From NCBI GenBank assembly GCA_037135275.1, contig JBAXKQ010000002.1, forward strand, positions 1 to 63,884: a stretch of 63,884 bases of DNA. Direction: 5' to 3'. Position 1 is the first letter of the stretch. Each line of letters begins with the position of its first letter. Of the stretch, positions 3,836-31,937 are shown piece by piece. The notes under the pieces are model-generated. The model searched no databases. It was given only the letters and a program-made list of their open reading frames with translations, and was not told where the DNA came from. Made by a program: the position numbers and the translations under genes. Source of the stretch: a bacterium. Its GTDB lineage: Bacteria; Verrucomicrobiota; Kiritimatiellia; SPBP01.

Positions 3836-3890
3836 CCAATTGTCACCGGGCAGCGTTCTCATCCAAGGCGGCGGTGCCGGAGCGCTTGTC

Positions 3891-5940: not shown

Positions 5941-8900
5941 ATGAACTTCATGCGCCTGTTCCAAAAGCTTTATCCATCGGCAAGAACCAGCCGGGCGACC
6001 AGAAGGCCGCGGATACCATCCCGCCTGCCGGTTGTGGCCGCCACGACCATAATAACCCTTGCCGCCACCGCCGCCTTCGCCGGCAGTGCCACTAACACAT
6101 GGAACATGAGCACCAACGCCGACTACTACATTGCACCGACCAATCAGCCGCTGATCATGATCGATTCGACTCAGGGGGTGGCAAGGTTGATTCTGTTGTC
6201 CGATGAAATTCATAGGTCAACATTTGGCGAATATGTCACCAACGGTTCTGCACATGTGTCCACTAAACTGGGGCCAGATGTCGCTCTCTCTCTAAAGCAG
6301 CTCGGCGGCGTGTACCAGAACTCCGGCACCTTCATTTCCAGGGTCTTGGACAGCGGTTCTCCGGCGAACACATGGCAGAAGATGTACGCCAGGGCTACGT
6401 ACGGTTCCATCATCAACAGTCCTGCGGAGATTCAAACAGGCGGCAGTGGGCCTGTTGCATTGTACCACCTGAATAGTGACTGGAATGATACGCTTGGGCT
6501 GCGCAATCTATCTCCAATGGCCGGAGCATCGCTGGTTACACCAGGGCAGTTTGGTGCCAAGTGTGGCTTCGTTGATGGCGGTGTGTCGGGCTACGCAACC
6601 AGCGCATCAGGCTTCCCGGAGATGAGTAAGATCACCGTGTCGATGTGGATCAAGGCATCACGTAGCCAAAGCCAGATTGTTCAGTATGTATTTGGATTGG
6701 GCAATCTGACCTTTGCGTTGCACATAAGTGGCTTCTATTCCGACGCTAACTCTGCGCCAGGTTCAATCACAGTTGTTGTGTCCTCAAATCCTTCGTCGAC
6801 CACGGGTGGACAGTTCACAGATAGCAAGGACGTTGGTGTGTGGCGGCACATCGTTGCAGTGTACGACTCTACTGCCGCACAGAAGACACGGATCTACAAA
6901 GATGGCGTCGAACTGCCGATGATGTCGCAGAAAGCAACAGGTACGGTGCCCACCACGGGAAGTATGATTGTGGGAATGCGGTATGACAAGATAATCGGCT
7001 TTCAGGGCGCCATCGATGAGCTTGCAGTATATGACCGAGCCCTTTCTCAGGAAGAAGTGCTAGACCTGTACAGCAGGGGGCTGTCGTTCTTCTTCCAGTT
7101 GCGGGGAGGGAACACGACCGCAGAAACCACAAACACTTCAAACCAGTTTACTGGCCCGGATGGCACCACCAACAGTTACTACTTCGGAGAAAACCGAATA
7201 CTCCAGACCGCCGGATCGTTCGATGTCACCAACCAGTATGCGCAATATAAGGCCTATCTGATCAAGGACACATCAGGCAACACTCCATGGTTTGATGCTG
7301 TGACCCTGTTCGGCGACCTTGGAATGGATGTGGACTATTCGTTCCTGGATTTCCGGCGCGGAGATATGTCCCAGAGCACCACGAATTACCCAGGCCTGTC
7401 CGACACGCCGTACCTGAGTTTGGCAAAGAAGGAGAATGGTGGGTACTACACCAATGGAACATACGTATCCAGGGCCATGGATGCTGGTAGCTCCGTCAAC
7501 TGGCGCAAGTTCGAATGGCAGGCCCCGGGTGAACTTACGAATGACATACAAGGCTTGATTGCGTTGTACCATCTTAAGAGCTGGGGTGATGCGCAGGGTG
7601 TTGTCGGTGGTGACAACACGCCGGCGAGTGTGACAATGGCGGACAGCTCAGGGAGTATGCCCAAGCTGGGTATGGATTGCGGTAGGTTCGATGGGGTGAG
7701 TTCGCATGTTACGGGCTTTCCAGGTCTGAGTACTAACATCATGACAGTGGAGTTCTGGATCAATGATGACAATCCGCAGGATGGCATCATGACGTTGGCC
7801 TCGTACTCGAATGGGCCGGCGTATCTCGCCATATCGAACGGTATCGTCATCACGCGGGGGTTCGCAAACATCACGCCACAGGTTTACGTGAATGGACTGA
7901 CGGGGTCACGAAAGCTGATGGCTGGTTGGAATCACGTGGCAATTACATTCGACAAGGTGCTTGCAGGTGCGGCACTGGATGTTGGAGTCGCCAATGGCGA
8001 CTATATGCAGGGGCTCATGGATGAGATGGCAATATACACTCGACAACTGTCCGGCATCGAGCTGAAGGCGCATTACCTCCTTGGCAGGCAAAGTGTCGGA
8101 GGTGTCGCGAAGTTTGCGTTTCGAACCGCCGATTCCATTGCGGCCCTGACTGGTGGGGTGTGGTCCACTGAGTCAACCACACCGTTCGACCCGAACTCCC
8201 TGGGGCAATATTTCCAGTACCGTCTTACTATGGAGGGCGATGGCAGTGCTTCGCCTGCGGTAAAGAACATCACGGTGGGGTATCTGAATCCAGGGTGGCA
8301 GTACATGTATGACCACGACCGGGAGGCAATATACCAGGGGGCGTTTGTCGGCGGTACCACTAAGTGGTCAGGCGACGAGGTTATGCTGGTAGATCAATCA
8401 CAGTGGGGGCCGCTGAATCTGTCCAGTCTTGAGGCCGGCCTTGTCGGTGAGTGGCGGCTTGATGAATCGTCGTGGGGTACCGTTTCCGGCACTCCCGGCG
8501 GCAACGGAACCGCCCTGGGTGGCGCCCAGCCTATTGTCGATGCAAGGGTCGGTCTCAGGTCAGCCCAGTTCTCAGTCACCAACCAGTATCTCACACTTGG
8601 AAGTCCATCGGTCGGAAGCGGCGATTTCACGGTTGGTGCATGGGTGAAGTCCACGGCCAGCAACAGGTGCGCCATTGTATCCACCTTTGCAGGGGGTGCC
8701 CACTACACCCTGGAGTTCAATGGGGACGGCACGACCAATGTCCCAGGCAAGGCTGCCTTGGTGATTGATACGGCGCCAACAGACAAGAAGGTTGTCGCCT
8801 CGGTCCTGACTGATATCAACGATGGCCGGTGGCATCATGTTGCCGGTATGCGGCGCGGCGACACGTTGCATCTCTATATCGATGGGGACCGGGTGGCCTC

Positions 8901-11900
8901 GGCAAACATCGGCAGTGCATACGGTAGTGTGGGGTCGGGCACCATCTATGTCGGAAAGTACGGCACCAGCAACCTGTTTCTTAGAGGGCAAGTGGATGAG
9001 GTTGTGGTGTTCCAGCGGGCCCTCTCCGATGCGGAAGTTGGGGAGCTGTCGGGAACCGCCTACCGCGTTCGCGACCGCGGCATCTACACCTCCGAGATCA
9101 TTGACGCCGGCAGAGAGGTTATCTGGCAGACGCTCTCGTGGAACGCCGATGCACCGTATAACAAGCCCCTCTCCACAGTCTATGACACCAATATAGTGGC
9201 GTTGTGGCACATGGACAGCAACACCCTTGACTCCGCAGGGACCTTTGATGGCACGTTGGCTGGAGGTGCAGGTTTCAACAGTGCCGGACGTTTCGATTCA
9301 TGCCTGTCCTTGAACGGGACTGTGCAGTGGATGGGCAATATCACTGATGCCGAAGAACTCAGGCCGCCAAACCTTACAGTTGAAGCTTGGGTCTATCCGA
9401 CTGCCGTGGATAGTAGAATCGTGTTCGACAAGAGCAGTGGAGGGCAGGGCTATCAGCTTGGCACTGACTCATCCGGCCGTCCTGTCTTCAAGGTCGGTTC
9501 AGTCCTTTGTATTGATCCCGCATTGTCGCTTCGAACCGGGGCATGGACTCATCTGGTTGCCACATACTCTGGCAGTGAACTTGCACTCTATGTGAACGGT
9601 GAGATCCGAGCCAGGGCGGCTGGCTCGGGCAGTATGGGCACACCGGATGCGCGGATAGGGGCGGATGGTGCCGGGAGTGGCTGCTTCGCCGGTTTCATAG
9701 ACGAGGTCGCTGTTCACGACCGTGTTCTTCAGCCAGTGGAAATCCTGGACCACTATCGAGCTGGCGCCGTAACCCTGAAGTTCCAGGCGCGATCGGGCAG
9801 CAATGCCACGCTCATTGCATCCGCCCCGTTTGTAGGCCCAGCCGGAACAACAAATTCGTACTTCACAGTTGCCACCGGTGAGGGTCTGCAAGCGGTCATA
9901 CCCAAGGGTCAGTGCTTCCAGTACAAGGCATACCTGGGTACCGAGAACCACAGGTTCACACCAAGACTTCACGGTGTCACCGTCGAGTCGTCGGGCTACT
10001 CGACTGAGAATCCGGCGGTGGAAACGGCAAGCGGTGTGTTCTTCCCCGGCAAGATCACCACGTTTGTTCACACGATGGCGACAAATAACGACGCATCGGT
10101 CCGCTACCAGATATCCGGAGACAATGGTGCCACCTGGTACTACTGGCCGCTGTTTACCAACGCATGGGTCAACGCGGACCTTTACGGCGGCGGTTGGGAA
10201 AATGCCAGCCCTGTTGGAACCGTGAATCAGTATGTCGGCAATTTCTATAGACAGCTTTATGAGAAGACCGGTGTCAACTTGTTGTGGCGAGCATTCCTCC
10301 ATTCGACCGGCAGCGATCAGGTGGCCATTGATGCTGTCTCAATTGGCTACTCAAGAGGTCGTGTTCTTGTGACGTTCCCGAGCGGTACCGAGACGGACAC
10401 CAGGTCGCTGGTTGTAGGCACGCCGTACGATATCACCTGGTCATGGCTTGGGACGGTCAGCAACAACATAACCGTCGAGCTGCTCGACGGGACGAATGTG
10501 GTTTCTGTCCTTGGTACCGGGTTGCCCAACAATGGGGTGTTTCGCACGGTGATTTCCGAGCAGCGGGGCACGAACTACTACATACGGGTCAAGGATGGCA
10601 ACGATCCGAACAACATCTGGGATTTGTCGGATGGTCCGTTCTGGCTGCGTGAGCAGCTCCACATGACGAGCCCGGACGGCGGCGAGAAATGGTATATCGG
10701 CCGTACCAACCTGGTTAGATGGGACTCCCCGAAGTGGGGCGCCCAGAACCTGGTGGGTCCCATTGACATCTGGTTCAGCGGGGACGCCGGCACGAACTGG
10801 TTCGTGGTGGCGACACCGACGAATGCCTCAGGGACCAACGTATACTACTGGAACACACCGCTGACCAACTGGCAGTTCGTGTCCGAAAACGCACGGATGG
10901 GCGTGGCGACACCCGGCGCGTTCGACCCGGCATCCGCCTTCTACGGCGATATCTCCGATGGAACCTACACCAACGCCGGGATCGTGGTGACATTCCCGGC
11001 GACGGGCAATGCCGTGAACATGGGAGAAGCCACGACGCTGGAGTGGTATGCCGCCGGGGCGGGCTCGCATGGCGTGACTGTGGACTTCTTTGACGGTGTG
11101 GCCTGGACCAATATCTCGACAAATGCCACCTGTGTCCCCGGCTACAACACCCTCGGCTGCGTGCTGGAGGCCAAGGATCCCTCCGAAGCGGCACGTATCC
11201 GAATCACAGCCAATGACGACCCGGTGAATGTGACCGGGATTTCGGGCATTTTCATCCTGGCGGACATCAACATCATCACACCCGTGGGCGGCAGCGAAGC
11301 GGTCAGGAGCCAGTGGCAGATCGGGACCACCAATTACGTGAGATGGACCGCCGCAGGTGCAGGCAGTTCGGTTGACATCACCTATTCGCCGGACGGTGGC
11401 TCGAGCTGGTACACGATCGCCAGCGGGTGGGCCAACACCAACAGCTCGGTTGGCAATGTTGTGACGAACGTGTCGCCGCCGTGGGTGGTGGCAGGTCCGC
11501 CTTCCTCCAATTCGATGATCCGAGTGAAGTCAGTGTCGCAAAGCAGCCTCTTTGCCACCACTCCGCCGTATTTTGACGTGTCCGGTGTGCAGGTGACGTA
11601 CCCGAACGGCGGCGAGTACTGGGAGTTCGGGCGGACGAACCTGGCCACATGGCTTCACCAGGCTGCCGGCGCGAATGTGGGGATTGACTGCGCATATATC
11701 AGCAGTCCGACTACGAACGATTACGAGAACATTGTCGCCTCTGCATCCATCTTCAACGGTCGCTGGGTGATCCCTGCCGCCAATGTCCGGCGGCCGACGA
11801 CGGTCGGCAAGCTGCGGATACGGGCCATCAGCCCGCCGTCCGGCATCCCGATGGAAGACTATTCCGATGCCACGTTCACTATAAGGGGCCTCTCGGTCAC

Positions 11901-16263: not shown

Positions 16264-16471
16264 CGGGCATCTGGAGGGGGAGGGTTGTTTGCGGCCTGTC
16301 TGAAGGCGCCTCTTTTCTCCTCAGGCGCATGCGCCCCGGATCCCGATGGGAACGGAGCTGAACGATCCGGCGTGGATGCCCATTCTTGTCTGCATCCACG
16401 GCCTGAAGTGAACTGGCAACTTGCATCCGTCCGTTACAGTTGATAGTCTCGCAGCATACATGTGTAACCTC

Positions 16472-17785
16472 ATGAACATCACTGGTGTGGGACGGGGCGC
16501 CGTGGTGCCGGCATGGCGGTTTCTCGTGCTGTTTCTCCTCTCCGGTGTCTTGGCGGGCGGTGTATACGCGCAAGGCAACATTGTCCTGGCCATCAAGGCC
16601 GTCAATCCCACGCAAACCGACAGCACCGTCAGGGTCAGCGCATTGCTGCCGAAGGGAGTCAAGCCTGCGGATGTGGTGGACGCGGCCGGCATGGAAGTGA
16701 AGTATGATCCCAATGTGGCCCTGTACTGTGTCCGTGCCGAGGAGAGGCTGCCGGCGGGTGGCAACAGGGAATACCGGGTGGTGCTGCGGGATATCTGGGT
16801 TGTGCCGGCTGAGCTTATCGCCGAGCTGCGCACCCACGCCGTCGGGCTTGCCGGGCAGCTTGCCGGAACCAAGCGCAAAGACTCGGCCGCATCGATCAGG
16901 ATGCGGATCGAGGGCGGCCTGGACCAGCTGGAAAAGTGGCAGGAGCGGTATCGCGCCGGTCCCAGCGCCACGCCAGTCGCCCACATACAGGCGTACGGCC
17001 GCAGCATGGATCTCCTGAAGCGGGTGATTGATGACACCGGGATACTCGAAACCCAGGCGAAAGACGAGGGCATCTATGTGCCCAAGCCACTTGGACCGCC
17101 GCCGCCCCGCGCGGAGGCCGGTGAAGCGGCAGTCGGTGAGACGCCGCGCAAAATCAGGCTGGATATCCGCAATGCCGGCAGGACAGAGCAAAAGATTCCC
17201 GTCCGGAGTTACCTCCCGCGCGAGGTGCGTCCCGAGGACGTGAGCGGCGATGACCGTGTCGAGGTCAGGTACGATGCCGAGCGGAGCGCCTGCTACCTTT
17301 TCAGCGAGGGCATAGCCGTAGGCCCCAATGAGACGGTGAACATAGAGGTGCTGGTGGCAGACCGGTGGATAGTGGCGCCGGGGCGGTACGCATTACTCGA
17401 GACCAAGGCCACCAACGTGCAGGCAAAGGCGGTTCTTGCCGGCCGTGATGATGTCAAGAACCAGGCCCAGGCGCTGTTGAACCAGCTAGTGACGGTACGG
17501 GCGGCCGAGCGGCCGCCGTTCGGCGACGAGTATATCGCGGATTACCACCGGAAGGTGGAAGACGTCGACAGGATCGAGGAGGAGCTTCTCAAGCTTGAGG
17601 CACGGATGGCGCCGTCCCAGGAGCGACCGATATTCGATGCCTCGGTATTGAACCAGGTCGAGGCGCCGAGCCGGAGCACGACATGGATCATAGTCTTCAC
17701 GGTAATTGGCTTTCTTTTCTTCTTCAGCGTGCTATTGTTCCTTCGCTGGTACGGCAAGGCCAAGGACGAAACAATGTCAGGGTGA
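16472..17785 (+). CDS. Orphan exported protein with N-terminal signal peptide, two tandem copies of a beta-rich + helical module, and a C-terminal TM anchor
   Basis: ATG 16472 gives MNITGVGRGAVVPAWRFLVLFLLSGVLAGGVYAQG. Internal duplication: LLPKGVKPADVVDAAGMEVKYDPNVALYCV vs YLPREVRPEDVSGDDRVEVRYDAERSACYLF, and REYRVVLRDIWVVPAELIAEL vs ETVNIEVLVADRWIVAPGRYALL. C-terminal TM is TTWIIVFTVIGFLFFFSVLLFLRWY. The stop lies 2 nt before the alpha1 ATG. Confidence 0.75.
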   Translation: MNITGVGRGAVVPAWRFLVLFLLSGVLAGGVYAQGNIVLAIKAVNPTQTDSTVRVSALLPKGVKPADVVDAAGMEVKYDPNVALYCVRAEERLPAGGNREYRVVLRDIWVVPAELIAELRTHAVGLAGQLAGTKRKDSAASIRMRIEGGLDQLEKWQERYRAGPSATPVAHIQAYGRSMDLLKRVIDDTGILETQAKDEGIYVPKPLGPPPPRAEAGEAAVGETPRKIRLDIRNAGRTEQKIPVRSYLPREVRPEDVSGDDRVEVRYDAERSACYLFSEGIAVGPNETVNIEVLVADRWIVAPGRYALLETKATNVQAKAVLAGRDDVKNQAQALLNQLVTVRAAERPPFGDEYIADYHRKVEDVDRIEEELLKLEARMAPSQERPIFDASVLNQVEAPSRSTTWIIVFTVIGFLFFFSVLLFLRWYGKAKDETMSG

Positions 17786-17787
17786 CG

Positions 17788-19251
17788 ATGGACCTGAAGA
17801 TAAATCTCCTGCAATTGAAGGAACGCGGCGTTGTCGCGGAGATGAAGCAGGATATTGTGCACATCTCCGGCCTTGCCAACTGCATGAACGGCCAGCTCGT
17901 CCAGATCAGCGATGCGGCCGAGGGTGTTATCGTCGGTTTCGACCAGGAATACGCACTTGTCCTGCTGGTTGAGCAGCACGGCACAGTCAAGCCGGGTGAC
18001 CAGGCGACGTCGCTGATCAAGTCGTTTTCCATCCCGGTCGGCGACGGGTTCATAGGCCGGCGTGTTGACGCGCTGGCCGCCCCGCTGGACGGCCGCGGGC
18101 CGATCAATGCCACCAGGCAATACCCCATATTCGGGAAGGCGCCGTCGGTGCTCGAACGGCGGCAGCTTACCGAGGTCCTGCCCATGGGTGTGAAGATACT
18201 GGACATGATGATACCGATAGGCAAGGGGCAGCGCGAACTGATCATCGGCGACCGAATGACCGGCAAGACCACCGTAGCGACCGATGCCATTCTCATGCAG
18301 AAGCACACCGGCACGATCTGTGTCTACTGCTGCATCGGCAAGGCAGAGGCGTCGCTCGGGAAGGTGATCGAGCTGTTCGATACCAACGACGTCTGGAAAT
18401 ACGGCATAATCGTGGCCGCGACGGCGTCCGATTCCATGGGGAAGCAATACCTCGCGCCCTACGTCGCAACGAGCATTGGTGAGTACTTCATGTACGAAAA
18501 GGGTATGGATGTGCTGGTGGTTTTCGACGACCTGACGAAGCACGCCTGGACCTACCGGCAGATGTCGCTGCTCCTCGAGCGCTCCCCTGGCCGCGACGCC
18601 TACCCCGGGGATATTTTCTATCTCCACTCGCAGCTGGTTGAAAGGGCGGGCAGGTTGAGCATAACGCGGGGCGGTGGCTCCATGACCCACCTGCCGATCA
18701 TTGAGACCCTGCAGGGGGACGTGACGGGCTATATTCCATCTAACACAATTTCGATGACCGACGGGCAGGTCTACATGAACACGACCCTCTTCGGTGAGGG
18801 TTTCAAGCCGGCCATCGACGTCAAGCTGTCCGTATCTCGTATCGGCAGCAAGGTCCAGTGGCGAGCGATGAAGACCCTGGCCGGAATGATGCGGCTGGAA
18901 TACCTGAACTTCCTCCAGCTGCTCAAGCTGACGCGGGTCAAGGCTGGGGTTTCAGCCGAGGTGGAGGGCCGTCTCCGGCGCGGCAAAGTGGTGGCTGAAC
19001 TGCTCAAGCAGCCCAACAACGCGCCGGTACCGATGGAAGAGCAGGTTGTAACCCTCTACGCTTTCAGGGAAGGCTTTTTCGACGATGTCCAGCCGGAGAA
19101 TGTCCAGGCGCGGCTTGAGACCCTGTTGTCGAGCATGAGGCGCGGCAGGCCGGAGTTGATGGCCGAGCTGGTCAGGCAAAAGGATCTTACCGAGGAAATC
19201 AAGGAGGGGCTCAAGCATGAGTTCGCTCGGCTCCGGAATTCCGCTGTTTAA
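17788..19251 (+). CDS. atpA: F-type ATPase alpha subunit paralogue 1 (487 aa, divergent)
   Basis: GDRMTGKTTVATDAILMQK, DDLTKHAWTYRQMSLLLERSPGRDAYPGDIFYLHSQLVERAGR and LSVSRIG (Arg finger retained, CGT 18838-18840). ATG at 17788 follows the upstream TGA (17783-17785). Confidence 0.85.
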   Translation: MDLKINLLQLKERGVVAEMKQDIVHISGLANCMNGQLVQISDAAEGVIVGFDQEYALVLLVEQHGTVKPGDQATSLIKSFSIPVGDGFIGRRVDALAAPLDGRGPINATRQYPIFGKAPSVLERRQLTEVLPMGVKILDMMIPIGKGQRELIIGDRMTGKTTVATDAILMQKHTGTICVYCCIGKAEASLGKVIELFDTNDVWKYGIIVAATASDSMGKQYLAPYVATSIGEYFMYEKGMDVLVVFDDLTKHAWTYRQMSLLLERSPGRDAYPGDIFYLHSQLVERAGRLSITRGGGSMTHLPIIETLQGDVTGYIPSNTISMTDGQVYMNTTLFGEGFKPAIDVKLSVSRIGSKVQWRAMKTLAGMMRLEYLNFLQLLKLTRVKAGVSAEVEGRLRRGKVVAELLKQPNNAPVPMEEQVVTLYAFREGFFDDVQPENVQARLETLLSSMRRGRPELMAELVRQKDLTEEIKEGLKHEFARLRNSAV

Positions 19252-19252
19252 A

Positions 19253-20716
19253 ATGAAGCTGGCCGAGATCGGCCATGTTCGGGACGTGAAGAAGATCATC
19301 GCCCGCGTCACCGGCCTGCCGTCGTGCCTCAACGGCCAGCTGGTTGATTTTGGCGAGGGGGTGCGCGGCATCGTCATGGGCTTTGACCGCGAGGACGTCC
19401 TCGTCCTGGTCCTGGGCGACGAGACCAAGCTCCGCATGGGCAAGCCCGTCACAGGGATCAGCGAGCCGTTCACGATCCCGGTCGGTGAGAAATGCATCGG
19501 CCGCATGATCAACGCCCTGGGCGAGGCCGTGGACGGCAAGCAGTTGATCGTGCCTGATATGCGCCGCGCGGTCATGCGCGATTCACCCTCGATCACCGAC
19601 CGTGGCCCCGTGAATGAACCGCTCCTGACAGGCACCAAGGTGGTGGATATCTTCATCCCGGTTGGCAAGGGGCAGCGCCAGTTGATCGTCGGCGACCGCA
19701 TGACCGGCAAGACTGTCATCGGGGTCGACGCGATCGTCAACCAGAAGGGCAAGGATGTTATCTGCATCTACTGCTGCATCGGGAAGGCGATGTCGTCGCT
19801 CGAGAAAGCGGTCAGCGTCCTCCACGACTCCGGCGCGCTCGAGTACACGATTGTCATGCTCGCCCTCGACAACGCGCCGGCCGGGGAGCAGTACCTGCTC
19901 CCCTCGGCGGCCGCGACAATGGGCGACTACTTTGCCGAGAGCGGGCGCGATGTGCTGGTTGTCCTTGATGACATGACCAAGCACGCGTGGGCCTACAGGC
20001 AGCTCTCCCTGCTGCTCGAGCGGCCGCCGGGTCGCGAGGCTTATCCTGGCGACATCTTCTACGAGCACACGAAGATCATGGAACGGGCGGGCCGCTACTG
20101 CGAGAAGAAGGGCGGCGGGTCGATGACGTTCCTGGGCATTGCCGAGACGCTGGAAGGCGACCTGACCGGCTACATCCCGTCGAACCTCATATCCATGTGC
20201 GACGGGCTGGTGTTCCTGAGCAATCCGCTGTTCGGCAGCGGAATCCGGCCGGCGGTGGACTTCACGCTGTCGGTGTCGATCGTGGGAGGCAGAACCCAGC
20301 CACCCGTGCTGAGGGCGGTAAGCGCCGACCTGCGGGTCCAGTACGCCCATTATCTCGAGGTGTCAAAACTGAGCAAGCTCCAGGCCAGCGTGTCGGCCGA
20401 GGCTGAACGCGTGATACGGCGCGGTGAGGCGATAGCCTCGATCGTCCAGCAGGGGCAGTTTGCGCCGGTGTCCCTCGCGGAGGAAGTTGTTTTGGCGTTC
20501 GCCACGCACCGCGGCAGGCTGGACAGGCTGTCGGTCGAACAGCGGAAAGCCTTCTGCAAAGATGTGTTTGGTTTTACCCGCAGGAAGAAGCCGGATATCC
20601 TGGACCTCATCACCGAGGAGGCCGAATTGACTGTGGAGCTCGAGAAGAAGCTCAACGAGCTCCTGGACGAGTACTTTGCCCAGGACGACGGCGGCGGGCA
20701 GCAGGCGCAGCAGTGA
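19253..20716 (+). CDS. atpA: F-type ATPase alpha subunit paralogue 2 (487 aa, Arg-finger position substituted)
   Basis: GDRMTGKTVIGVDAIVNQK and DDMTKHAWAYRQLSLLLERPPGREAYPGDIFYEHTKIMERAGR. LSVSIVGG replaces SVSRVG (ATC 20279-20281). ATG 19253 is 1 nt after the alpha1 TAA. Confidence 0.85.
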   Translation: MKLAEIGHVRDVKKIIARVTGLPSCLNGQLVDFGEGVRGIVMGFDREDVLVLVLGDETKLRMGKPVTGISEPFTIPVGEKCIGRMINALGEAVDGKQLIVPDMRRAVMRDSPSITDRGPVNEPLLTGTKVVDIFIPVGKGQRQLIVGDRMTGKTVIGVDAIVNQKGKDVICIYCCIGKAMSSLEKAVSVLHDSGALEYTIVMLALDNAPAGEQYLLPSAAATMGDYFAESGRDVLVVLDDMTKHAWAYRQLSLLLERPPGREAYPGDIFYEHTKIMERAGRYCEKKGGGSMTFLGIAETLEGDLTGYIPSNLISMCDGLVFLSNPLFGSGIRPAVDFTLSVSIVGGRTQPPVLRAVSADLRVQYAHYLEVSKLSKLQASVSAEAERVIRRGEAIASIVQQGQFAPVSLAEEVVLAFATHRGRLDRLSVEQRKAFCKDVFGFTRRKKPDILDLITEEAELTVELEKKLNELLDEYFAQDDGGGQQAQQ

Positions 20717-20741
20717 CGGGGCGACGGGGGAATGGTTTCAC

Positions 20742-20972
20742 ATGTTTCACGTGACGATTCTCAACCCGAAGCACGTGGTTTTTGAAGGTGATGCGGAGAG
20801 CGTGTTCCTGCCGGGTGACAAGGGTGAGTTCGAGATTCTGACGTTTCACGCCCCGATACTGAGCCTGTTGAAGCCGGGCAAAGTTGTGGTAGACTGGAAA
20901 ACGACCATACCGATAAAGAACGGAATGGTTAAGTTCGATCACAAGGGTTGTGTGGTGCTGGTGCAGGAATGA
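20742..20972 (+). CDS. atpC: F-type ATPase epsilon subunit, beta-sandwich domain only (76 aa)
   Basis: MFHVTILNPKHVVFEGDAESVFLPGDKGEFEILTFHAPILSLLKPGKVVV resembles the epsilon N-terminal domain. The ORF ends before any C-terminal helical hairpin. The stop overlaps the next start (ATGA 20969-20972). Confidence 0.7.
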   Translation: MFHVTILNPKHVVFEGDAESVFLPGDKGEFEILTFHAPILSLLKPGKVVVDWKTTIPIKNGMVKFDHKGCVVLVQE

Positions 20973-21193
20973 ACATATTCAGAAATATCGTGGTCTTTCT
21001 CGTGCTGCTGGTGACGATTCTCGGGCCTTCAGCGGTTATTGCCGCCATCGGCCACGCGAGCATAAGGGCCCTCGGACGGAACCCGTCCGCGGCCCCGAAG
21101 ATCATGCAGGCAATGATCGTTGCGCTGATTTTCTCGGAGTCGATCGCGGTGATCGCGCTCCTGATACTGTTTCAGCTGTTCGCCGGCAAGTAG
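20969..21193 (+). CDS. atpE: F-type ATPase c subunit (74 aa hairpin)
   Basis: Two hydrophobic helices joined by a polar loop GRNPSAAP (cf. ARQPE). Helix 2 is IVALIFSESIAVIALLILF, with the conserved carboxylate at Glu57 (GAG 21137-21139). Confidence 0.75.
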   Translation: MNIFRNIVVFLVLLVTILGPSAVIAAIGHASIRALGRNPSAAPKIMQAMIVALIFSESIAVIALLILFQLFAGK

Positions 21194-21227
21194 TCCGGTC
21201 TCCTGTTGAAATTATGAAAGGGCAAAC

Positions 21228-21983: not shown

Positions 21984-22028
21984 CGTTGCAGTGGCGGGGC
22001 CCCTCAGGGGCGGACGGGGGAGATTGAC

Positions 22029-22949: not shown

Positions 22950-22993
22950 GGCGGCGGTGTCCGCGGGTCAGTCACAACAAGGAGACTCTAGAA

Positions 22994-24388: not shown

Positions 24389-24398
24389 CGCTGGCATT

Positions 24399-26036
<1,638 letters not shown>

Positions 26037-26146
26037 TGCCGCCTCACCGCGGGCAGGATGCCCCCCCCGAGACCAGGGAGGGCGCTCCGCCGCCGAACGC
26101 GCCGCCGGATGTTTGCGTCTGACAGGGAAGCACCACGGGATACACA

Positions 26147-27364
26147 ATGCCGCGTTTCACCTACAAGGCCAGGAATGCCGAGCTCAAGACCATCGAGGGC
26201 GAACTCGTTGCCGGGAACGAGGCGGAGGCCCTGGCCCGGCTCGATGCCATGGGCTATTGCCCTGTGTGGGTGAGGGAGATGGCGCAAGAGCCGGAGGATG
26301 CGATTCCGCGTGCGCGCCGGCGTGAGAGAATCCCGCACCGTGAAGTCACGGTTTTCACCCGCCAGATGGTCGGGCTCACGAAGTCGGGCGTGCCAATTCT
26401 CAAGGCATTGCGTACGGTCAGGGAACAGAGCGCCAACCCGAGGTTCTGCGCCGTCCTCGCCCACCTGGAGGAAACGGTCAGGGATGGGAGGATGCTGTCC
26501 GAGGCGCTCGCGCAGCATCCGCACGTGTTTTCACAGCTGTACGTCAACATGGTGCGGGCGGGCGAATCGGCCGGAATCCTTGATGTCATCCTCCTGCGGC
26601 TCGCGGAAGCGAGGGAGCGGGAGGACGCCATCAGGCGGAAGCTGCAGGCGGCTTCGGTCTATCCGCTGCTGGTGCTGGCCGTGGGCGTGGTCACAGTCTT
26701 TGTGGTCATTACATTCTTCATGCCGAAGATAGCCGGGATGTTCAGGAATGTTGACGACCTGCCGCTGCCGACGGCGCTGCTGATCGGCCTCAGCGAGGGC
26801 ATCCGGCACTACTGGCCCTGGGTGCTGGTGCCGGCGGTGCTGCTGGCTGCGATACTCAGGCGCATAGGCTCCGGGGCAAAAGGCAGGGCGATCCTGGACA
26901 ACGCCAGGCTGCGGCTGCCTCTCATCGGGGCTTTCACGCTGCAGGCGGAAATGGCCCGTTTCTCGCGGACCATGTCCCTCCTCATCAGCGCCGGCATACC
27001 GGTCGAGAAGGGTCTTGCCTTGAGCGCCGACACCATGACCAATAGCGTACTCAGGAACGAGATGGATGAGGTGCGGCGAACAACGGTGCAGCAGGGCAGG
27101 TCAATCGCCTCGGGCCTGAAGAACTCGAGGCACGTTCCGGCTTACCTGCAGAGCATGGCGGCTGTCGGCGAGGAGGGCGGAAGGCTGGATGAGGCGTTTG
27201 CCGACGTTGCCTTCTACTACGAGAACGAGCTCGAGCGGCAGATCGGCATGATGACGTCGCTGGTGGAGCCCATCCTGATCCTGGTCGTCGGGGCCGTGGT
27301 GGGGTTTATCGTTTTCGCGATGATGCTGCCGATATTCGAAATGACGAAGTCGATGGCCAGGTGA
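26147..27364 (+). CDS. gspF: Type II secretion / T4P platform protein (GspF/PilC family)
   Basis: 405 aa. MPRFTYKARNAELKTIEGEL... start, duplicated T2SSF-type halves and three hydrophobic segments. Confidence 0.9.
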   Translation: MPRFTYKARNAELKTIEGELVAGNEAEALARLDAMGYCPVWVREMAQEPEDAIPRARRRERIPHREVTVFTRQMVGLTKSGVPILKALRTVREQSANPRFCAVLAHLEETVRDGRMLSEALAQHPHVFSQLYVNMVRAGESAGILDVILLRLAEAREREDAIRRKLQAASVYPLLVLAVGVVTVFVVITFFMPKIAGMFRNVDDLPLPTALLIGLSEGIRHYWPWVLVPAVLLAAILRRIGSGAKGRAILDNARLRLPLIGAFTLQAEMARFSRTMSLLISAGIPVEKGLALSADTMTNSVLRNEMDEVRRTTVQQGRSIASGLKNSRHVPAYLQSMAAVGEEGGRLDEAFADVAFYYENELERQIGMMTSLVEPILILVVGAVVGFIVFAMMLPIFEMTKSMAR

Positions 27365-27490
27365 CGGCTGGTCCGGCAATCTCCAGTACGCGTATTTCAA
27401 TTCCCACAGTTTAAGGGTGTACGCTGGGATCGCTGTGCTGTATATTCGTGACGTATTGAGGCCGGTATTGTATCCATGGAGGTGTGCACC

Positions 27491-27910
27491 ATGCGCACGC
27501 GCAACCCGCGATCGGCATTCACGCTGATCGAGATCATGATAGTTGTCATCATTCTCGCAGCCCTCGCGGCCATGGTGGTGCCTTACCTGGGCGATGTGCC
27601 CGACACGGCCAAGAGCAGGATTGCGAAGGTGGAGATCAAGTCCATCGGCACGGCCCTTCAGCTCTACAAGCTCGAAACAGGCGGGTTTCCGAAGGACCTT
27701 GCGGCGTTGCAGTCCGTTCCACAGGGGGTTGCCGGGAGGACGACAAAGTACCTCATGAACGACCCCATTGACCCGTGGGGCGCCCAGTACAAGTACAAGT
27801 ATCCAGGGACGCGACAGAATACACCCGGTTATGACCTGTACTCGACCGGCCCCAATAAGTTTGACGACAATGGCGCCACCGATGACATCACCAACTGGAA
27901 ACAGGACTAG
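27491..27910 (+). CDS. gspG: Major pseudopilin (GspG-like)
   Basis: MRTRNPRSA|FTLIEIMIVVIILAALAAMVVP prepilin N-terminus, plus KVEIKSIGTALQLYKLETGGFP and DPWG...Y.Y typical of GspG. GGAGGTG lies 6 nt upstream of ATG 27491 (the listed ORF starts at 27476). Confidence 0.85.
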   Translation: MRTRNPRSAFTLIEIMIVVIILAALAAMVVPYLGDVPDTAKSRIAKVEIKSIGTALQLYKLETGGFPKDLAALQSVPQGVAGRTTKYLMNDPIDPWGAQYKYKYPGTRQNTPGYDLYSTGPNKFDDNGATDDITNWKQD

Positions 27911-28268
27911 CGTTGGTGCGGGCGGCTTCACCCTCATAGAAACACTTGTTTCTGTCACCATCCTCGCTTTCGGCATCGTGGGCGTCATGGCCGCCTTTGA
28001 CGTGTGCATGTCGACCCTGTCTTCGGCAGGGGAACGAATGAGGGCCACAGCCTTCATGAACGAGAAGATCTCCGGCATGGCATGCGGCGGCGAGATGGCG
28101 GCCGGCCAGGCGGCAGGCGCCGGCGACGGATTTGCCTGGCAGGTCGATATTCACCCGGCGGCCCGTCCGTCAGGGGCGGCGGTAAACGAAATCGTGGTGT
28201 CCGCATGGCTGCCGGGCAAGGAAGCCGCGGCCTATTCCCTTTCAACCTACGTCGTGGAAAGTCCATGA
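27882..28268 (+). CDS. Minor pseudopilin (GspI/GspH-like)
   Basis: Leader MTSPTGNRTSVGAGG|FTLIETLVSVTILAFGIVGVMAAF, which is a class III signal with Glu at +5. Small size. Confidence 0.7.
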   Translation: MTSPTGNRTSVGAGGFTLIETLVSVTILAFGIVGVMAAFDVCMSTLSSAGERMRATAFMNEKISGMACGGEMAAGQAAGAGDGFAWQVDIHPAARPSGAAVNEIVVSAWLPGKEAAAYSLSTYVVESP

Positions 28269-28918
28269 GCATGAAGCGTCATGATGGCAAATGCGCTGGG
28301 TTGACCCTGATTGAACTGCTGGTTTCGATCAGTATCCTCTCGGTGGTCGGCGGGGTAATACTGCTGGCCCTGTACTCAGGCATACTCGTGTGGGAAAGGG
28401 CTGGCGGCTACGATGACAAGCGTCTCGAGGCAATGCTGGCGCTTGAGGAGCTGGAAAGGGACGCCAGGAATGCGTTTCCGTTCTACGCCATAGCCTTCCG
28501 CGGCTCAGACTCCGTGGTGGCATTCACCGGTATCACAGAGGAAGACACGGGAGAGGGGCGGGTCCGGCGGTTCTGCGAGATCGAGTACTCGTTCGACTCC
28601 AAGGCCAGTGAACTCAACCGTCGCGTCAATGCCTTTCCCCCGGGGGGTGGCGCGGGGGAAGGAGCTGCAGCCGCGGTCATCACAGGTGTCGATTCCGTGA
28701 AGATCACATATCTTGATCCTCCGGCCACGCCGGGCGGCCCCGCAGTCTGGAATGACGCCTGGAGCAGTCGAAAGAGATTGCCGTCGGCGCTGAGGATCGT
28801 ACTTGAGTTTCGCGGGGAAGGCGGGGGCGGGCCGCTGACCATCCTGAAGACAATCGACCTGCCGGTGAAGACGCCGGCGGAGAAAGAGGATCCCGATGAG
28901 GCCGAAGGCAGTGCATAG
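28265..28918 (+). CDS. Minor pseudopilin (GspJ-like)
   Basis: MSMKRHDGKCAG|LTLIELLVSISILSVVGG. The ATG overlaps the upstream stop (ATGA 28265-28268). Confidence 0.65.
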   Translation: MSMKRHDGKCAGLTLIELLVSISILSVVGGVILLALYSGILVWERAGGYDDKRLEAMLALEELERDARNAFPFYAIAFRGSDSVVAFTGITEEDTGEGRVRRFCEIEYSFDSKASELNRRVNAFPPGGGAGEGAAAAVITGVDSVKITYLDPPATPGGPAVWNDAWSSRKRLPSALRIVLEFRGEGGGGPLTILKTIDLPVKTPAEKEDPDEAEGSA

Positions 28919-29954
28919 AGGCGGGCAGCGGTCGGGCGGGAGCGTTCTGATCGTTTCGCTGTGGACGGTGCTCCTGCTCGGCCTCATGGCGGCTGCGCTG
29001 TGCGCGCATGTGTCGAACCGCGCGGCAGCGGCCTGGGATGTCGCCAACAGGGCGGTGTGCTACCGGGCGGCGAGAGCCGGCGTGGCTGCGGCCGTGGCGG
29101 AGGTCCGGCACGGCACCAACGCGGAGAGCGGCGCGCTGTCCGCGTGGAATAACAATCCGGCAGGCATGAAAGACATTCCCGTGGGTGGCGGTGTGTTCAC
29201 TGTGCACCACACTGTTGGCGATGCCGGCGGTGTTGTGCACACGAACTATGGCGTGGCCGATGAATGCGGCAGGATCAACATCAACGGGATAACCAACGAG
29301 GTGACCTGCTGGCTTGTAACGTCGCTCCTCAGGGATGCGGCCTGCCTGAGCGACCAGGATGCGGAGAAGCTTGCGGCTTCAATTGCGGACTGGATCGACG
29401 AAGACGGGCAGGCGAGGGACGGCGGGAGCGAGGTCGGGCCGAACACGGCACTCGATGGGGCGTACGCCGTCCACAACGGGAGGATCACCATCCTCGAGGA
29501 GCTTCTCCTGGTGCGGGGAATGGATACGAACATCTTCTCCGCCATTGCCGACCACCTGACTATTCACGGCACTAACACCGGTGTGAACTTGAACACGGCC
29601 GACTATGCGGTGCTCCGGGCCCTGGCACTTGCGAGGAATGGCGCCCAGGATGCCGACGCGGAGGGGCTGGTGAAACGTATTGTTGAGTTCAGGGATGCGG
29701 GGAATGTCCTGCAAACGCTCGATAAGCGCGCGATCAGAAAGCAGCTCTTCGGGGAAGGGGAGATGTCCGCATCGCAGCGCGGCCAGTGGACGATACTTGA
29801 GTGGTTGCTGAATCATCACCTCATAGCTGTACAGGCCGGGTATTTCTGTGGTATATCCACGGGTCGATTGCCTGATGGGGCCGCAGTGGAGAGACGGATT
29901 GCCTTTGTGTTCGATGGCACGACTGGGGAAATGAAGGCCTGGCATGAAGAATAG
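28896..29954 (+). CDS. gspK: GspK-like minor pseudopilin (T2SS protein K family)
   Basis: GSVLIVSLWTVLLLGLMAAAL N-terminus without Glu at +5, ...DECGRININGI..., and helix-hairpin-helix-like LNTADYAVLRAL. 352 aa. Confidence 0.7.
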   Translation: MRPKAVHRGGQRSGGSVLIVSLWTVLLLGLMAAALCAHVSNRAAAAWDVANRAVCYRAARAGVAAAVAEVRHGTNAESGALSAWNNNPAGMKDIPVGGGVFTVHHTVGDAGGVVHTNYGVADECGRININGITNEVTCWLVTSLLRDAACLSDQDAEKLAASIADWIDEDGQARDGGSEVGPNTALDGAYAVHNGRITILEELLLVRGMDTNIFSAIADHLTIHGTNTGVNLNTADYAVLRALALARNGAQDADAEGLVKRIVEFRDAGNVLQTLDKRAIRKQLFGEGEMSASQRGQWTILEWLLNHHLIAVQAGYFCGISTGRLPDGAAVERRIAFVFDGTTGEMKAWHEE

Positions 29955-31392
29955 CCGATGGGCAAAGTGTGTAACCATTGCTGAAGCGGGGAACGACCGG
30001 ATCAAGCTGATCCAGGCCACGCGAGACCGTGACGGGGTTACACTCACCAGGGTGTTCGTCAGGAAGTTTGAATCCGTTGACGATGAGTTCATGCGTGGCC
30101 TGGCCGCCGACATCCACAAGCTCCGGCTCGGCAACAACCCGGTGCTGGCCTGCCTTCCCAGGCAGGTCGTAAATGTGCGGCTTCTCGAGGTCCCTTCCAC
30201 AGATCCTTCCGAAATCTCCGGCATGGTCGAGCTGCAGGTCGGGAAGCAGACGCCGTACTCCCGCGACGAGATTGTTGCCGACTACAGGGTGATAGGCGCC
30301 GGTCGTGAGGGGCACACGAGGATAATGCTCATCATGGTGCAGCAGAGCATCATGCGGCAGCGTTTCCGGCTTCTCGAGGAAGCCGGCCTGGAGGTTACCG
30401 GGATGACCGTCAGCTCCGAGGGGATGCTGAACTGGTACAAAATGATCCAGGCCGGGCGGACAGGGAAGGGCGGCGTTGTCCTGCTGGACGTGGATAGCGG
30501 CTATTCCGACCTCGGGATTGTGGTGAAAGGCCAGCTCGTCCTCACGAAGAGCATTCTTGTCGGGGCGCGCCAGCTTGAGCAGGCCCCCGAGAAGTGGCGC
30601 GAGACCCTGGCCCGCGAGATCGAGAACGCCATTGATGCGTACCGCGGCGAGGCCGGGGCCAACGCGCCGATCGAGAGTCTCGTGGTCTCCGGGGCGGAAG
30701 CCGGCATCGCGGGCCTGGATGCGGTGCTTGGAGAGCGCCTCAAGCTTGCGGCCCAGTCGCTGGATTCTCTCCAGAATGTCAAGAAGGGGCCCGGCCTGCC
30801 GGACCTGAAATCAGAAACCTGCAGGGGTGTCTCTCTCACGCCGCTTGTGAGCATGGCACTTGATCCCGGCGCCATGGAGTTCTCGCTGGTTCCGGAGCCG
30901 GTAAAGATGCGACGCGACCTGGAGGTGAAGGCCAGGGGCTTGACCGCCATGGGGACGCTGGTCCTGACTGTGGGTGTGCTGTTGTCGGTCATGGCAATTG
31001 TGCTGATGCACCAGCGGCTCGAGGTGGTGATGGACCTGCGCGCCCGGCTGAATGAGACTGAGGCGCAGGTGGCAAAAGTCAACCGGATGAGCGATACGAT
31101 CGGGACAATCATGGCGCGGCTTGACAGCACCCGCGCGCCGGTGAACATCCTGCTTGAGCTTGCCAGGCAAACACCGCCTGCGGTTGTGTATGATTCAATC
31201 GGATTTGAAAGTGAAGTCAGCCTGATTCTCAAGGGTCGCGCCCGCTCATTCCCCGATGTGGACCTGCTCAGGCAGAACCTCGAGCTCAGCAGCGTCATCT
31301 ATCCAAATGTTGTGAGCAGGCAACAGAGAATCGATTCCAAGACCGGCATGGTGGAGTTTGAACTGGCCTGTCTGGCCACAAAGGAGCCGTGA
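29944..31392 (+). CDS. PilM/GspL-like cytoplasmic actin-fold domain fused to a PilN-like TM + periplasmic domain
   Basis: 482 aa. Soluble N-terminal ~310 aa, TM LTAMGTLVLTVGVLLSVMAIVLM, then a coiled segment and a ~100-aa C-terminal domain. Its position after the pseudopilins matches the pilMNO/gspLM slot. Confidence 0.6.
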   Translation: MKNSRWAKCVTIAEAGNDRIKLIQATRDRDGVTLTRVFVRKFESVDDEFMRGLAADIHKLRLGNNPVLACLPRQVVNVRLLEVPSTDPSEISGMVELQVGKQTPYSRDEIVADYRVIGAGREGHTRIMLIMVQQSIMRQRFRLLEEAGLEVTGMTVSSEGMLNWYKMIQAGRTGKGGVVLLDVDSGYSDLGIVVKGQLVLTKSILVGARQLEQAPEKWRETLAREIENAIDAYRGEAGANAPIESLVVSGAEAGIAGLDAVLGERLKLAAQSLDSLQNVKKGPGLPDLKSETCRGVSLTPLVSMALDPGAMEFSLVPEPVKMRRDLEVKARGLTAMGTLVLTVGVLLSVMAIVLMHQRLEVVMDLRARLNETEAQVAKVNRMSDTIGTIMARLDSTRAPVNILLELARQTPPAVVYDSIGFESEVSLILKGRARSFPDVDLLRQNLELSSVIYPNVVSRQQRIDSKTGMVEFELACLATKEP

Positions 31393-31937
31393 TGGCGTTC
31401 GTCAACCTGGACAAACTGCTTCCCCGCGAGAGAATGATGCTTGCGCTGTGCTGCCTGGCGGTCCTTCTGGCTTTTGGCAACTGGGCCGTGGTGCGCCGCC
31501 TGCACACAAGGCTGGCGGACCTGTCGGCTGTTATCAGGGATGATTCCAAGCGGCTCGAGCAGAACTATTCCATAATCGCCAAGACCGACGAGGTGCAGGC
31601 GAAGTTCGACAGCATCAAGGCTCACATCCCCGCTGTGCCGGCAATCAAACCGACCGATGCGCTGTCCACCGAGATTGAACAGATGGCGGCACGGTGCGGG
31701 GTCAGTCTTCTGGACAGGAAGCCACAGGAGTCCGTGCGGACGGGATGTTTTGAGCAGTCCAGCGTACGGTTTGAAGTGGTCGGTGACCAGGAAGGTCTGA
31801 TGAAGCTGCTGTGTCGTATCGAGGCGTCACCCCAGTTGCTGCGCATCGGCAGGCTGGACCTTACGCGGAATCCCAAGGCCGGCTCTTTTCCCCTCAAGGC
31901 GATTCTGAACGTCACGGCTATTGCCGAGGCCCCCTGA
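31389..31937 (+). CDS. PilO/GspM-like bitopic assembly protein
   Basis: 182 aa. N-terminal TM MMLALCCLAVLLAFGNWAVV, a coiled region and a C-terminal ferredoxin-like-sized domain. ATGA-type overlap with the upstream gene (31389-31392). Confidence 0.5.
   Translation: MMAFVNLDKLLPRERMMLALCCLAVLLAFGNWAVVRRLHTRLADLSAVIRDDSKRLEQNYSIIAKTDEVQAKFDSIKAHIPAVPAIKPTDALSTEIEQMAARCGVSLLDRKPQESVRTGCFEQSSVRFEVVGDQEGLMKLLCRIEASPQLLRIGRLDLTRNPKAGSFPLKAILNVTAIAEAP

Follow-up and report, generated by a model that had tools for sequence, protein, structure and literature searches.

A candidate ATP-driven F-type motor encoded beside a giant surface protein and pseudopilus genes in a Kiritimatiellia locus and its relatives in the PVC group

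Closest described systems and the reach of the locus family

To our knowledge, rotary ATPases make ATP or pump ions, and the gliding motor of Mycoplasma is the sole well-studied exception. The closest described loci are those of the Omnitrophota, for which Seymour et al. 2023 (PMC10066038) report, in every class, a nonrespiratory F-type ATPase beside type-4a pilus clusters, with the ATPase and the type-4 pilus cluster at most 10 kb apart in 57 of 66 contigs, and propose attachment or motility by analogy with Mycoplasma. Here we analyze a related locus from another phylum. It lies in a stretch of 63,884 nucleotides (nt) of contig JBAXKQ010000002.1 (assembly GCA_037135275.1, assigned to the Kiritimatiellia), called the window below, where 17 tightly packed plus-strand genes spanning 5941 to 31937 encode a giant LamG surface protein, a membrane anchor protein, a set of F-type ATPase subunits, and a type II secretion-like pseudopilus machine (Table 1). 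We consider it probable (roughly 0.6) that this block works as one unit in which a nonchemiosmotic, ATP-driven F-type motor is joined to the giant surface protein and the pseudopilus machine. It belongs to a locus family of PVC bacteria, with members in the Omnitrophota, Lentisphaerota, Kiritimatiellia, and Verrucomicrobiota. An earlier note made from this DNA had picked out the 17 codirectional genes, and their coordinates are borne out by our gene calls, which were taken from the listing of open reading frames (ORFs) and from Pfam and NCBIfam scans. Its statement that F-type ATPase genes were not known to be operonic with Gsp genes is out of date, given the co-location reported by Seymour et al. 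2023 (PMC10066038).

As in the Omnitrophota loci of that study, the window has an F-type ATPase set directly beside GspE/PilB, GspF/PilC, and pilin genes, and the role proposed, attachment or motility, is shared. It also falls within the 10-kb spacing used there, since the beta stop codon lies 10 nt from gspE, and the same holds for two Omnitrophota loci that we retrieved, L030 and L032. These two share with the window a b/delta fusion, a short epsilon, a near-identical c subunit, an anchor module, and a giant gene with LamG domains or immunoglobulin (Ig)-like repeats. The window differs in that its genome is Lentisphaerota-like and not one of the Omnitrophota, its two alpha genes come first, one copy of the duplicated alpha lacks the arginine finger, and the giant and anchor proteins are encoded by separate genes. 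The ATPase/pilus co-location itself was already known from the Omnitrophota (PMC10066038), and the window is a variant of it in another phylum. The extension of the locus family to the Lentisphaerota, Kiritimatiellia, and Verrucomicrobiota appears not to have been described, and the same appears to be true of the missing subunit a, the Met and Gln variants of c, the dead arginine finger of alpha2, and the anchor module with its fusion to giant proteins; the available text of Seymour et al. 2023 makes no mention of a missing subunit a, a Met or Gln c subunit, the anchor module, or giant-gene adjacency. In the literature, precedent for pairing the ATPase with secretion genes was found in Omnitrophota papers only, and none was found for Lentisphaerae or Kiritimatiella.

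Other accounts of the Omnitrophota bear on the same point. Seymour et al. 2023 (PMC10066038) set a "symbiotic" clade of alpha subunits apart from a separate "respiratory" clade. A 2026 preprint reports V/A-type ATPase subunits in 70 to 99% of Gorgyraeia outside one order, and also that most complete Omnitrophota genomes carry F-type alpha and beta without a recognizable gamma; both observations fit a diverged, non-housekeeping F-type set. A 2023 preprint on giant genes in the Omnitrophota describes type II secretion-like loci beside such genes and mentions no ATPase.

The Mycoplasma mobile gliding motor (G1-ATPase, MMOB1660/1670; Gli349/Gli521) resembles the window locus in that an F1-derived, nonsynthase ATPase is tied to giant surface proteins and ATP hydrolysis is turned into movement at the cell surface. 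However, the window subunits are closer to canonical F1 than to the type 2 and type 3 ATPases of mycoplasmas, and c, epsilon, gamma, and b/delta are retained. The window system would also sit in a diderm envelope together with a type II secretion-like machine, whereas mycoplasmas have no such machine. Membership of the type 2 and type 3 groups was tried and rejected on NCBIfam scores, which reached 396 and 375 bits versus 600 for MMOB1660, 410 versus 850 for MMOB1670, and 304, 270, and 376 bits versus cutoffs of 520 and 570 for MSC_0618/MSC_0619.

Two other systems invite comparison. Type IX secretion and gliding in the Bacteroidota (GldLM, SprB) combine a secretion machine with an inner-membrane rotary motor, and by analogy energy would reach a giant surface adhesin through a bitopic protein that spans the periplasm. 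There is no homology, however; GldLM is driven by the proton motive force whereas the window motor would be driven by ATP, and the secretion part in the window resembles type II/type IV filament systems. The N-ATPases (atpDCQRBEFAG) are likewise a second, non-housekeeping F-type gene set spreading among bacteria, but they retain subunit a, AtpQ/AtpR, and an ion-binding c subunit, pump ions, and have a different gene order. The window genes were not assigned to that group (alpha1, 467 bits; alpha2, 490 bits; beta, 481 bits; all versus ~750), and no a, Q, or R genes accompany them.

The linkage of these genes is not local to the window. The anchor protein has few close homologs, and all of their contigs share the same neighbors. 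When the anchor alignment was run against one genome for each GTDB species, it returned 18 metagenome-assembled genomes (MAGs), labelled Lentisphaerota, Victivallales, or Verrucomicrobia, and tblastn mapping recovered the order anchor-alpha1-alpha2-epsilon-c-b/delta-gamma-beta-GspE-GspF in 18 of 18, as far as the retrieved DNA reaches. Nearly all of these MAGs have a giant ORF of ~3,000 amino acids (aa) directly upstream. Identity across the set drops to 25% for the anchor but remains at ~70% for beta and ~80% for c. A search with alpha2 returned a much larger family, with members named Lentisphaerae, Kiritimatiellae, and Verrucomicrobia, and the five contexts taken from it have the same core gene order. 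The anchor-ATPase-GspE-GspF linkage was also found in about ten metagenome contigs from Lentisphaerota, Kiritimatiellia, Verrucomicrobiota, and Omnitrophota. A different ATPase gene order, epsilon-c-b/delta-alpha(-alpha)-gamma-beta, is seen in L030 and L032 (Omnitrophota) and in the unassigned contig L031, but there too the set lies between the giant/anchor genes and GspE/F. The alphas of these loci have diverged (47 to 53% identical to alpha1 in L030 and L032), and the L032 c subunit is 82% identical to that of the window. L032, an ENA metagenome contig assigned to the Omnitrophota solely through its identical c protein, P0397, reads LamG giant, one-module protein, two-module anchor, epsilon-c-b/delta-alpha-gamma-beta, GspE, GspF. 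Its one-module protein, encoded at 7811 to 8383 between the giant and anchor genes, is an extra secreted protein of 190 aa with a single anchor-type module and no transmembrane (TM) helix.

Chance adjacency is ruled out, since the linkage recurs in every related locus examined and survives both reordering and fusion; the conserved synteny that the earlier note had anticipated is present in the 18 MAGs and the further contigs. The same note took the blocks to form one cluster. A promoter/terminator scan, in which site counts were not above chance, found no terminator-like site in the gaps at 16264 to 16471 or 24389 to 24398, and this lends slight weight to a joint unit. Some copies of the locus are interrupted: in L001 (15 to 980) and L002, the place of the giant gene before the anchor is taken by an IS1595 transposase, L028 has a Y1 transposase after GspF (18670 to 19686), and the beta gene of L002 is split (7390 to 8786). 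The locus may be decaying in some populations.

The ATPase subunits and the detached anchor

The catalytic head combines two unlike alpha subunits with an intact beta. Alpha1 has both the P-loop (GDRMTGKT) and the arginine finger (SVSRIG), motifs kept in 21 of 21 orthologs; it passes the NCBIfam atpA cutoff (514 versus 484 bits), and its best match in the PDB is a canonical F1 alpha (E = 2e-132). Alpha2 also passes this cutoff (492 bits) and has a P-loop, but Ile occupies the arginine-finger position (SVSIVGG). The substitution is fixed in 21 of 21 orthologs and present in 118 of the 120 closest database homologs, the motif not having been located in the remaining 2. Because alpha1 and alpha2 are only 43% identical, the duplication appears to be old. 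Beta retains its P-loop (GGAACGKT), the catalytic Glu (GIGERIREG), and Walker B, all of them kept in every complete ortholog, and passes the atpD cutoff (545 versus 463 bits); in the PDB it matches canonical F1 beta (E = 2e-139) better than the Mycoplasma G1-ATPase beta (E = 3e-97). In PDB alignments, alpha1, alpha2, and the homologs P0009 to P0128 start ~15 to 22 residues later than canonical alphas, and for this reason they appear to be without most of the N-terminal segment that binds delta/OSCP. The b/delta stalk may hold the F1 head by some other contact.

The remaining subunits depart much further from those of a synthase. The ORFs scanned in the 64-kb window gave no ATP-synt_A domain (subunit a), nor is one listed among the precomputed Pfam assignments of 11 related contigs, an absence that the earlier note had not stressed. 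Epsilon consists of the N-terminal beta-sandwich alone, the regulatory C-terminal helical domain being absent; it scores 50 bits against a cutoff of 67 and covers positions 1 to 79 of the 130 in the NCBIfam model, and its orthologs are 75 to 92 aa long. The b/delta fusion, presumed to be the peripheral stalk (stator), has a TM helix at its N terminus, followed by a b-like helix and an OSCP/delta domain. In the PDB it is matched best by mycobacterial b-delta fusions (E = 3e-9), and it falls far under all canonical NCBIfam cutoffs (47 versus 328 bits). Gamma is strongly diverged as well (82 versus 194 bits; PDB gamma, E = 5e-9).

The c subunit has the RNP loop and a carboxylate, Glu57, but not the GxGxGxG motif, and reaches 20 bits against an NCBIfam cutoff of 122. 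Across phyla it nonetheless ranks with the best-conserved products of the cluster: 675 database homologs were recovered, most with a precomputed PF00137 assignment, and those named by NCBI as Omnitrophota are 81 to 84% identical to the window protein. Of the 120 closest homologs, 102 have Glu at position 57 and 18 have Met, and these proteins are otherwise at least 73% identical. Met57 occurs in loci L011 and L013, and Gln is found at this position in the Omnitrophota locus L030. With no subunit a found in any locus, ion coupling does not seem to be what selection has maintained. On these sequence features the ATPase is not an ordinary ATP synthase, its chemiosmotic hallmarks having been lost. 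The earlier note had taken it for a non-housekeeping enzyme, and the lack of a detectable subunit a, the Met and Gln variants of c, the short epsilon, and the lost arginine finger of alpha2 agree with that view.

Behind its Sec-type signal peptide, the giant protein has both LamG domains and Ig-like repeats, and its C-terminal region is helical and ends in the tail ...LVDRVANPPEVMTYWTTE. A hydrophobic segment spans residues 29 to 47 near the N terminus, and there is no C-terminal TM helix. Such a helix is supplied by the anchor protein encoded by the next gene, in which a signal peptide is followed by two tandem modules, a linker, and a C-terminal TM helix (PxxKTTWLIIYIILGFLALVSLLFFLRW). In an AlphaFold2 model (mean pLDDT 77), each module is a beta-sandwich with a three-helix bundle; Foldseek found no match to this model in the PDB below an E value of 0.01. 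The TM helix, at residues 401 to 426, is the most conserved segment of the protein, with a column conservation of 0.79 across 26 orthologs versus 0.39 to 0.58 in the preceding blocks, and it ends in an invariant Arg-Trp (Arg425). Such conservation is unusual for a simple membrane anchor and suggests a specific intramembrane contact. The particular pair Glu57-Arg425 was tried as that contact and found no support, as Arg425 and the rest of the anchor helix are unchanged in the lineages with Met at position 57 of c.

A profile search of 1.84 billion representatives placed 890 relatives (50% clustering) in the anchor family, among them giant proteins of 1,100 to 3,700 aa that end in an anchor module and TM helix; several of these fused proteins are named as Omnitrophota. 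One of them, P0268 of L030, is encoded directly upstream of epsilon-c-b/delta-alpha-gamma-beta-GspE-GspF. Another, P0193 of L031, is encoded directly upstream of an L030-like gene order but with two alpha genes, one reading SVSRIG and the other SVSIIG at the arginine finger. The last 1,087 aa of the window giant are homologous to residues 741 to 1463 of a third fused protein, P0196 (E = 3e-47), whose contig is too short to show a linked ATPase, and the C-terminal tail of the window giant lines up with the junction itself, just ahead of the anchor module of fused proteins. These Rosetta-stone fusions, together with the alignment of tail and junction, indicate that the giant and anchor proteins are two halves of one membrane-anchored surface protein. 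The anchor had been called an orphan bitopic protein in the earlier note; the bitopic topology stands, with a signal peptide and a C-terminal TM helix, and the protein is not an orphan, being the detached anchor of the giant. The giant ORFs of L012, L014, L015, L017, L019 to L021, L023, and L024 (Victivallales type) end in a tail of the form ...RFYRIxxLxE*, which differs from the ...NxPV(I/V)xxW/LxxE* tail that matches the fusion junction, and a single anchor may thus receive giant partners of two or more classes.

Proposed mechanism and alternatives

The gene content, the conserved linkage, the catalytic residues, the loss of chemiosmotic features, and the giant-anchor fusion are all read directly in the sequences, and from them we infer rotation, the transfer of torque to the anchor helix, and a cellular output. 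In the mechanism that we propose, the alpha1/alpha2/beta head would hydrolyze ATP at beta, and hydrolysis would turn a rotor of gamma, epsilon, and the c-ring against the membrane-anchored b/delta stator. Because subunit a is absent and the c carboxylate is dispensable, this rotation would move no ions and would instead be taken off as mechanical work within the inner membrane. The work would be passed to the conserved TM helix of the anchor, which would carry the LamG/Ig-repeat giant in trans in the window and in cis in other lineages, while the GspE/F/G-M pseudopilus machine would export or mount the giant protein or work alongside it. The likely output is ATP-powered movement or tensioning of the giant adhesin, which could serve attachment, surface motility, or the handling of substrate or prey. 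The earlier note had proposed a dedicated ATPase-driven secretion, fiber, or motility apparatus acting with the giant protein. Synteny, the nonsynthase features, and the Rosetta-stone fusion support a dedicated apparatus, and the choice among secretion, fiber, and motility would be a matter of interpretation.

If the proposal is correct, the locus family suggests that a second and far more widespread bacterial group has turned a complete F-type rotor into a mechanical device harnessed to a pilus/secretion machine and a giant adhesin. Its carriers include abundant polysaccharide degraders and ultrasmall predators or epibionts. The loss of subunit a, the c variants, the alpha2 finger, the anchor helix, and the giant-anchor fusion turn what was a loose co-occurrence into a concrete structural hypothesis. 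There is also a practical consequence, in that annotations reading "F0F1 ATP synthase" in PVC genomes can mislead metabolic reconstructions.

How the motor would engage the anchor can be taken one step further, tentatively. In V-ATPases, single-pass type I proteins whose extracytoplasmic domain is large (yeast Voa1; mammalian Ac45/ATP6AP1 and ATP6AP2) place their C-terminal TM helix inside the c-ring. The anchor has the same topology, and these proteins offer a structural precedent alone, as no similarity of sequence or fold to the anchor was found; we know of no such helix insertion in any F-type c-ring. It is possible that the locus encodes an unrecognized class of motor, an F-type ATPase no longer translocating ions, in which the c-ring acts as an ATP-driven crank that moves the anchor helix of the giant adhesin. 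With the pseudopilus machine it would make up an organelle for surface motility or prey handling common to the Omnitrophota, Lentisphaerota, Kiritimatiellia, and Verrucomicrobiota. The helix might then lie inside the c-ring, as Ac45/Voa1 do, or at the site vacated by subunit a, and the dead catalytic site of alpha2 might turn rotation into a stepping or oscillating stroke.

Several points weigh against a mechanical motor coupled to the giant protein. Glu57 is retained in ~85% of c homologs and may matter for ion binding or for the stability of the ring, and a subunit a gene or a second ATPase is possible in the genome beyond the 64-kb window. Because alpha2 has no arginine finger, one or two of the three catalytic sites may, on sequence grounds, be crippled, and smooth three-site rotation is not guaranteed. 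Contact of the anchor helix with the c-ring or with the b/delta helix is hypothetical, and no covariation was seen between c position 57 and Arg425 of the anchor. The giant gene does not lie beside the core in L025, in one contig from the alpha2 search, or in L001 and L002. The window ORFs that were scanned yielded neither a secretin nor a prepilin peptidase.

The absence of the giant gene beside some cores would be explained if the motor served the pseudopilus, rotating or retracting GspF and the pseudopilus in place of a missing PilT-type ATPase, with the giant protein as cargo only. This arrangement is unlikely, in our view. Beta and gspE are indeed separated by only the short gap noted above, the ATPase-GspE-GspF adjacency is universal where the retrieved DNA reaches, and the cluster contains no PilT homolog. 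However, the anchor, or an anchor module fused to the giant, adjoins the ATPase genes in every locus, and no fusion or conserved contact was seen between ATPase subunits and Gsp proteins.

The retention of Glu57 in 102 of the 120 closest c homologs could be read as a sign that ions still move. Under such a scheme, an unrecognized substitute for subunit a, such as the anchor helix with its Arg, or GspF, would complete the ion path, and the ATPase would build a local gradient for the secretion machine; type II secretion depends partly on the proton motive force, and the anchor helix ends in an invariant Arg-Trp. We regard this as improbable. The lineages with Met or Gln at position 57 retain the whole locus, including Arg425, and that residue lies at the cytoplasmic end of the helix rather than in the middle of the membrane. 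Moreover, one helix is unable to form the two half-channels of subunit a.

The F1-like head could also be a nonrotary ATPase for export or unfolding that feeds the giant protein or the pseudopilins to the membrane machine. FliI, FliJ, and FliH are homologs of alpha/beta, gamma, and b-delta, respectively, and the ATPase genes do sit between the giant/anchor genes and the gene for the assembly ATPase. We give this little credence, because the locus has a full rotor set, including the very conserved c and epsilon that are absent from the type III secretion ATPases, and because the giant and anchor proteins carry ordinary Sec signal peptides. Membership of the FliI/SctN families was rejected as well, with NCBIfam scores far under their own cutoffs and under the canonical F1 scores.

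Least probable is an ordinary F1Fo ATP synthase with its subunit a gene elsewhere and the secretion genes adjacent by happenstance. In its favor, our inspection covered a 64-kb window of the source genome, most c homologs have Glu57, alpha1, alpha2, and beta pass the atpA and atpD equivalog cutoffs with canonical F1 subunits as their best PDB matches, and their homologs are named "F0F1 ATP synthase." Against it, ~30 loci yielded no subunit a, and a sizeable minority of c subunits have Met or Gln where the carboxylate should be, under otherwise strong purifying selection. Alpha2 has a conserved dead arginine finger, epsilon is short, and gamma, epsilon, c, and b/delta lie well under the canonical thresholds. 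GspE/F and the anchor stay linked to the ATPase genes through phylum-level divergence, gene reordering, and gene fusion, and in the Omnitrophota a separate "respiratory" alpha clade (PMC10066038) and V/A-type ATPases have been reported.

Gene map, secretion genes, and surroundings

The positions of the 17 genes are given in Table 1. Reading of the sequence confirmed the spacing given in the earlier note, with 208 nt between the giant and anchor genes, 2 nt between anchor and alpha1, 1 nt between alpha1 and alpha2, and 10 nt from the beta stop codon to the gspE ATG. An ATGA overlap within the ATPase block was read directly at epsilon/c. The delimiting genes on the opposite strand were also found where the note had placed them, as a 73-aa ORF ending at 5287 on one side and RecO (31966 to 32895) on the other.

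Table 1. Genes of the cluster at 5941 to 31937 of the window, with the evidence for each assignment
Product	Position	Strand	Evidence
Giant LamG surface protein, 3,440 aa	5941..16263	+	Pfam Laminin_G_3, three stretches, E 5.5e-78
Membrane anchor protein, 437 aa	16472..17785	+	Signal peptide and C-terminal TM helix; no Pfam/NCBIfam family
F1 alpha-like paralog 1 (alpha1)	17788..19251	+	Pfam ATP-synt_ab and ATP-synt_ab_C; NCBIfam atpA
F1 alpha-like paralog 2 (alpha2)	19253..20716	+	Pfam; NCBIfam atpA
Epsilon, 76 aa	20742..20972	+	Pfam ATP-synt_DE_N only
c-subunit-like hairpin, 74 aa	20969..21193	+	Translation; homologs carry PF00137
b/delta fusion, 251 aa	21228..21983	+	Pfam OSCP and weak ATP-synt_B
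Gamma, 306 aa	22029..22949	+	Pfam ATP-synt, E 1.7e-33
Beta, 464 aa	22994..24388	+	NCBIfam atpD
GspE/PilB-type assembly ATPase	24399..26036	+	Pfam T2SSE, 429 bits, and MshEN
GspF/PilC-type inner-membrane platform protein	26147..27364	+	Pfam T2SSF, two stretches
GspG major pseudopilin	27476..27910	+	NCBIfam GspG; Pfam T2SSG and N_methyl
GspI-like minor pseudopilin	27882..28268, start uncertain (ATG 27882 or GTG 27912)	+	N_methyl motif GFTLIE; weak GspI/XpsI
GspJ-like minor pseudopilin	28265..28918	+	Pfam T2SSJ and N_methyl; weak NCBIfam gspJ
GspK-like minor pseudopilin	28896..29954	+	Pfam T2SSK_1st
PilM-PilN fusion, GspL-like assembly-platform protein	29944..31392	+	Pfam PilM_2 and PilN; one TM helix
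GspM/PilO-like protein, last gene of the cluster	31389..31937	+	Pfam T2SSM_b, T2SSM, and PilO, all weak

The secretion part resembles canonical type II secretion (GspC-O) in having GspE, GspF, GspG, and I-, J-, K-, L-, and M-like genes in the usual order. It differs in that the scanned ORFs of the 64-kb window include no GspC, GspD secretin, GspH, or GspO, that its GspL is a PilM-PilN fusion of the Amuc_1101-like type, and that several components score under their NCBIfam cutoffs: GspE at 571 bits versus 630, GspF at 344 versus 424, the GspK-like protein at 77 versus 130, and the GspM-like protein at 40 versus 60. GspG is the component that passes its equivalog cutoff (94.2 versus 88.85 bits). 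In two relatives, a secretin is encoded upstream of the core. A type IVa pilus fits no better, since no PilT-like gene is present in the cluster, the major subunit is of the GspG type, and both PilB (528 versus 676 bits) and PilC (282 versus 700 bits) fall under their cutoffs.

The PilM-PilN fusion, with its TM helix at residues 331 to 349, lies under the cutoffs of both the pilM and the Amuc_1101 families. The latter, a PilM-like pilus-complex protein of Akkermansia, is its second-best NCBIfam match (70 bits versus a cutoff of 650) and suggests that the machine of the cluster is related to the Amuc_1098-1102 pilus-like cluster of that genus. The window GspE has an N-terminal MshEN domain, a kind of domain that binds cyclic di-GMP, and a subthreshold match to the MshE-related cyclic di-GMP motif. 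In L030, at 16635 to 19266, the GspE homolog carries a fused PilZ domain, and a separate MshEN protein is encoded ahead of it. These domains hint, at the level of sequence, at control of the machine by cyclic di-GMP.

GC content is alike within and outside the block at 5941 to 31937. Inside it, the interval 6001 to 8000, in the 5' part of the giant gene, has a GC content of 0.54 versus ~0.61 for the rest of the cluster and could be a repeat-rich or recently exchanged N-terminal region. Immediately 5' of the giant gene, at 1325 to 5069, lie three glycosyltransferase genes (GT17-like, GT2, and GT4/GT1), whose products might glycosylate the Ser/Thr-rich giant protein or might belong to unrelated envelope functions. 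Downstream of the cluster, RecO, YbeY, holA, an arginase-family gene, and a tRNA are ordinary chromosomal genes. Farther along, at 52226 to 63068, are two consecutive RND efflux sets (the first with OEP, an HlyD-type adaptor, and an AcrB-type pump; the second with OEP and AcrB), and their presence bears out a diderm envelope that has outer-membrane channels. On the minus strand at 41756 to 43820, a Ser/Thr protein kinase gene overlaps a gene for a DUF2167 membrane protein, and an unannotated ORF of 454 aa (40593 to 41957) adjoins this pair.

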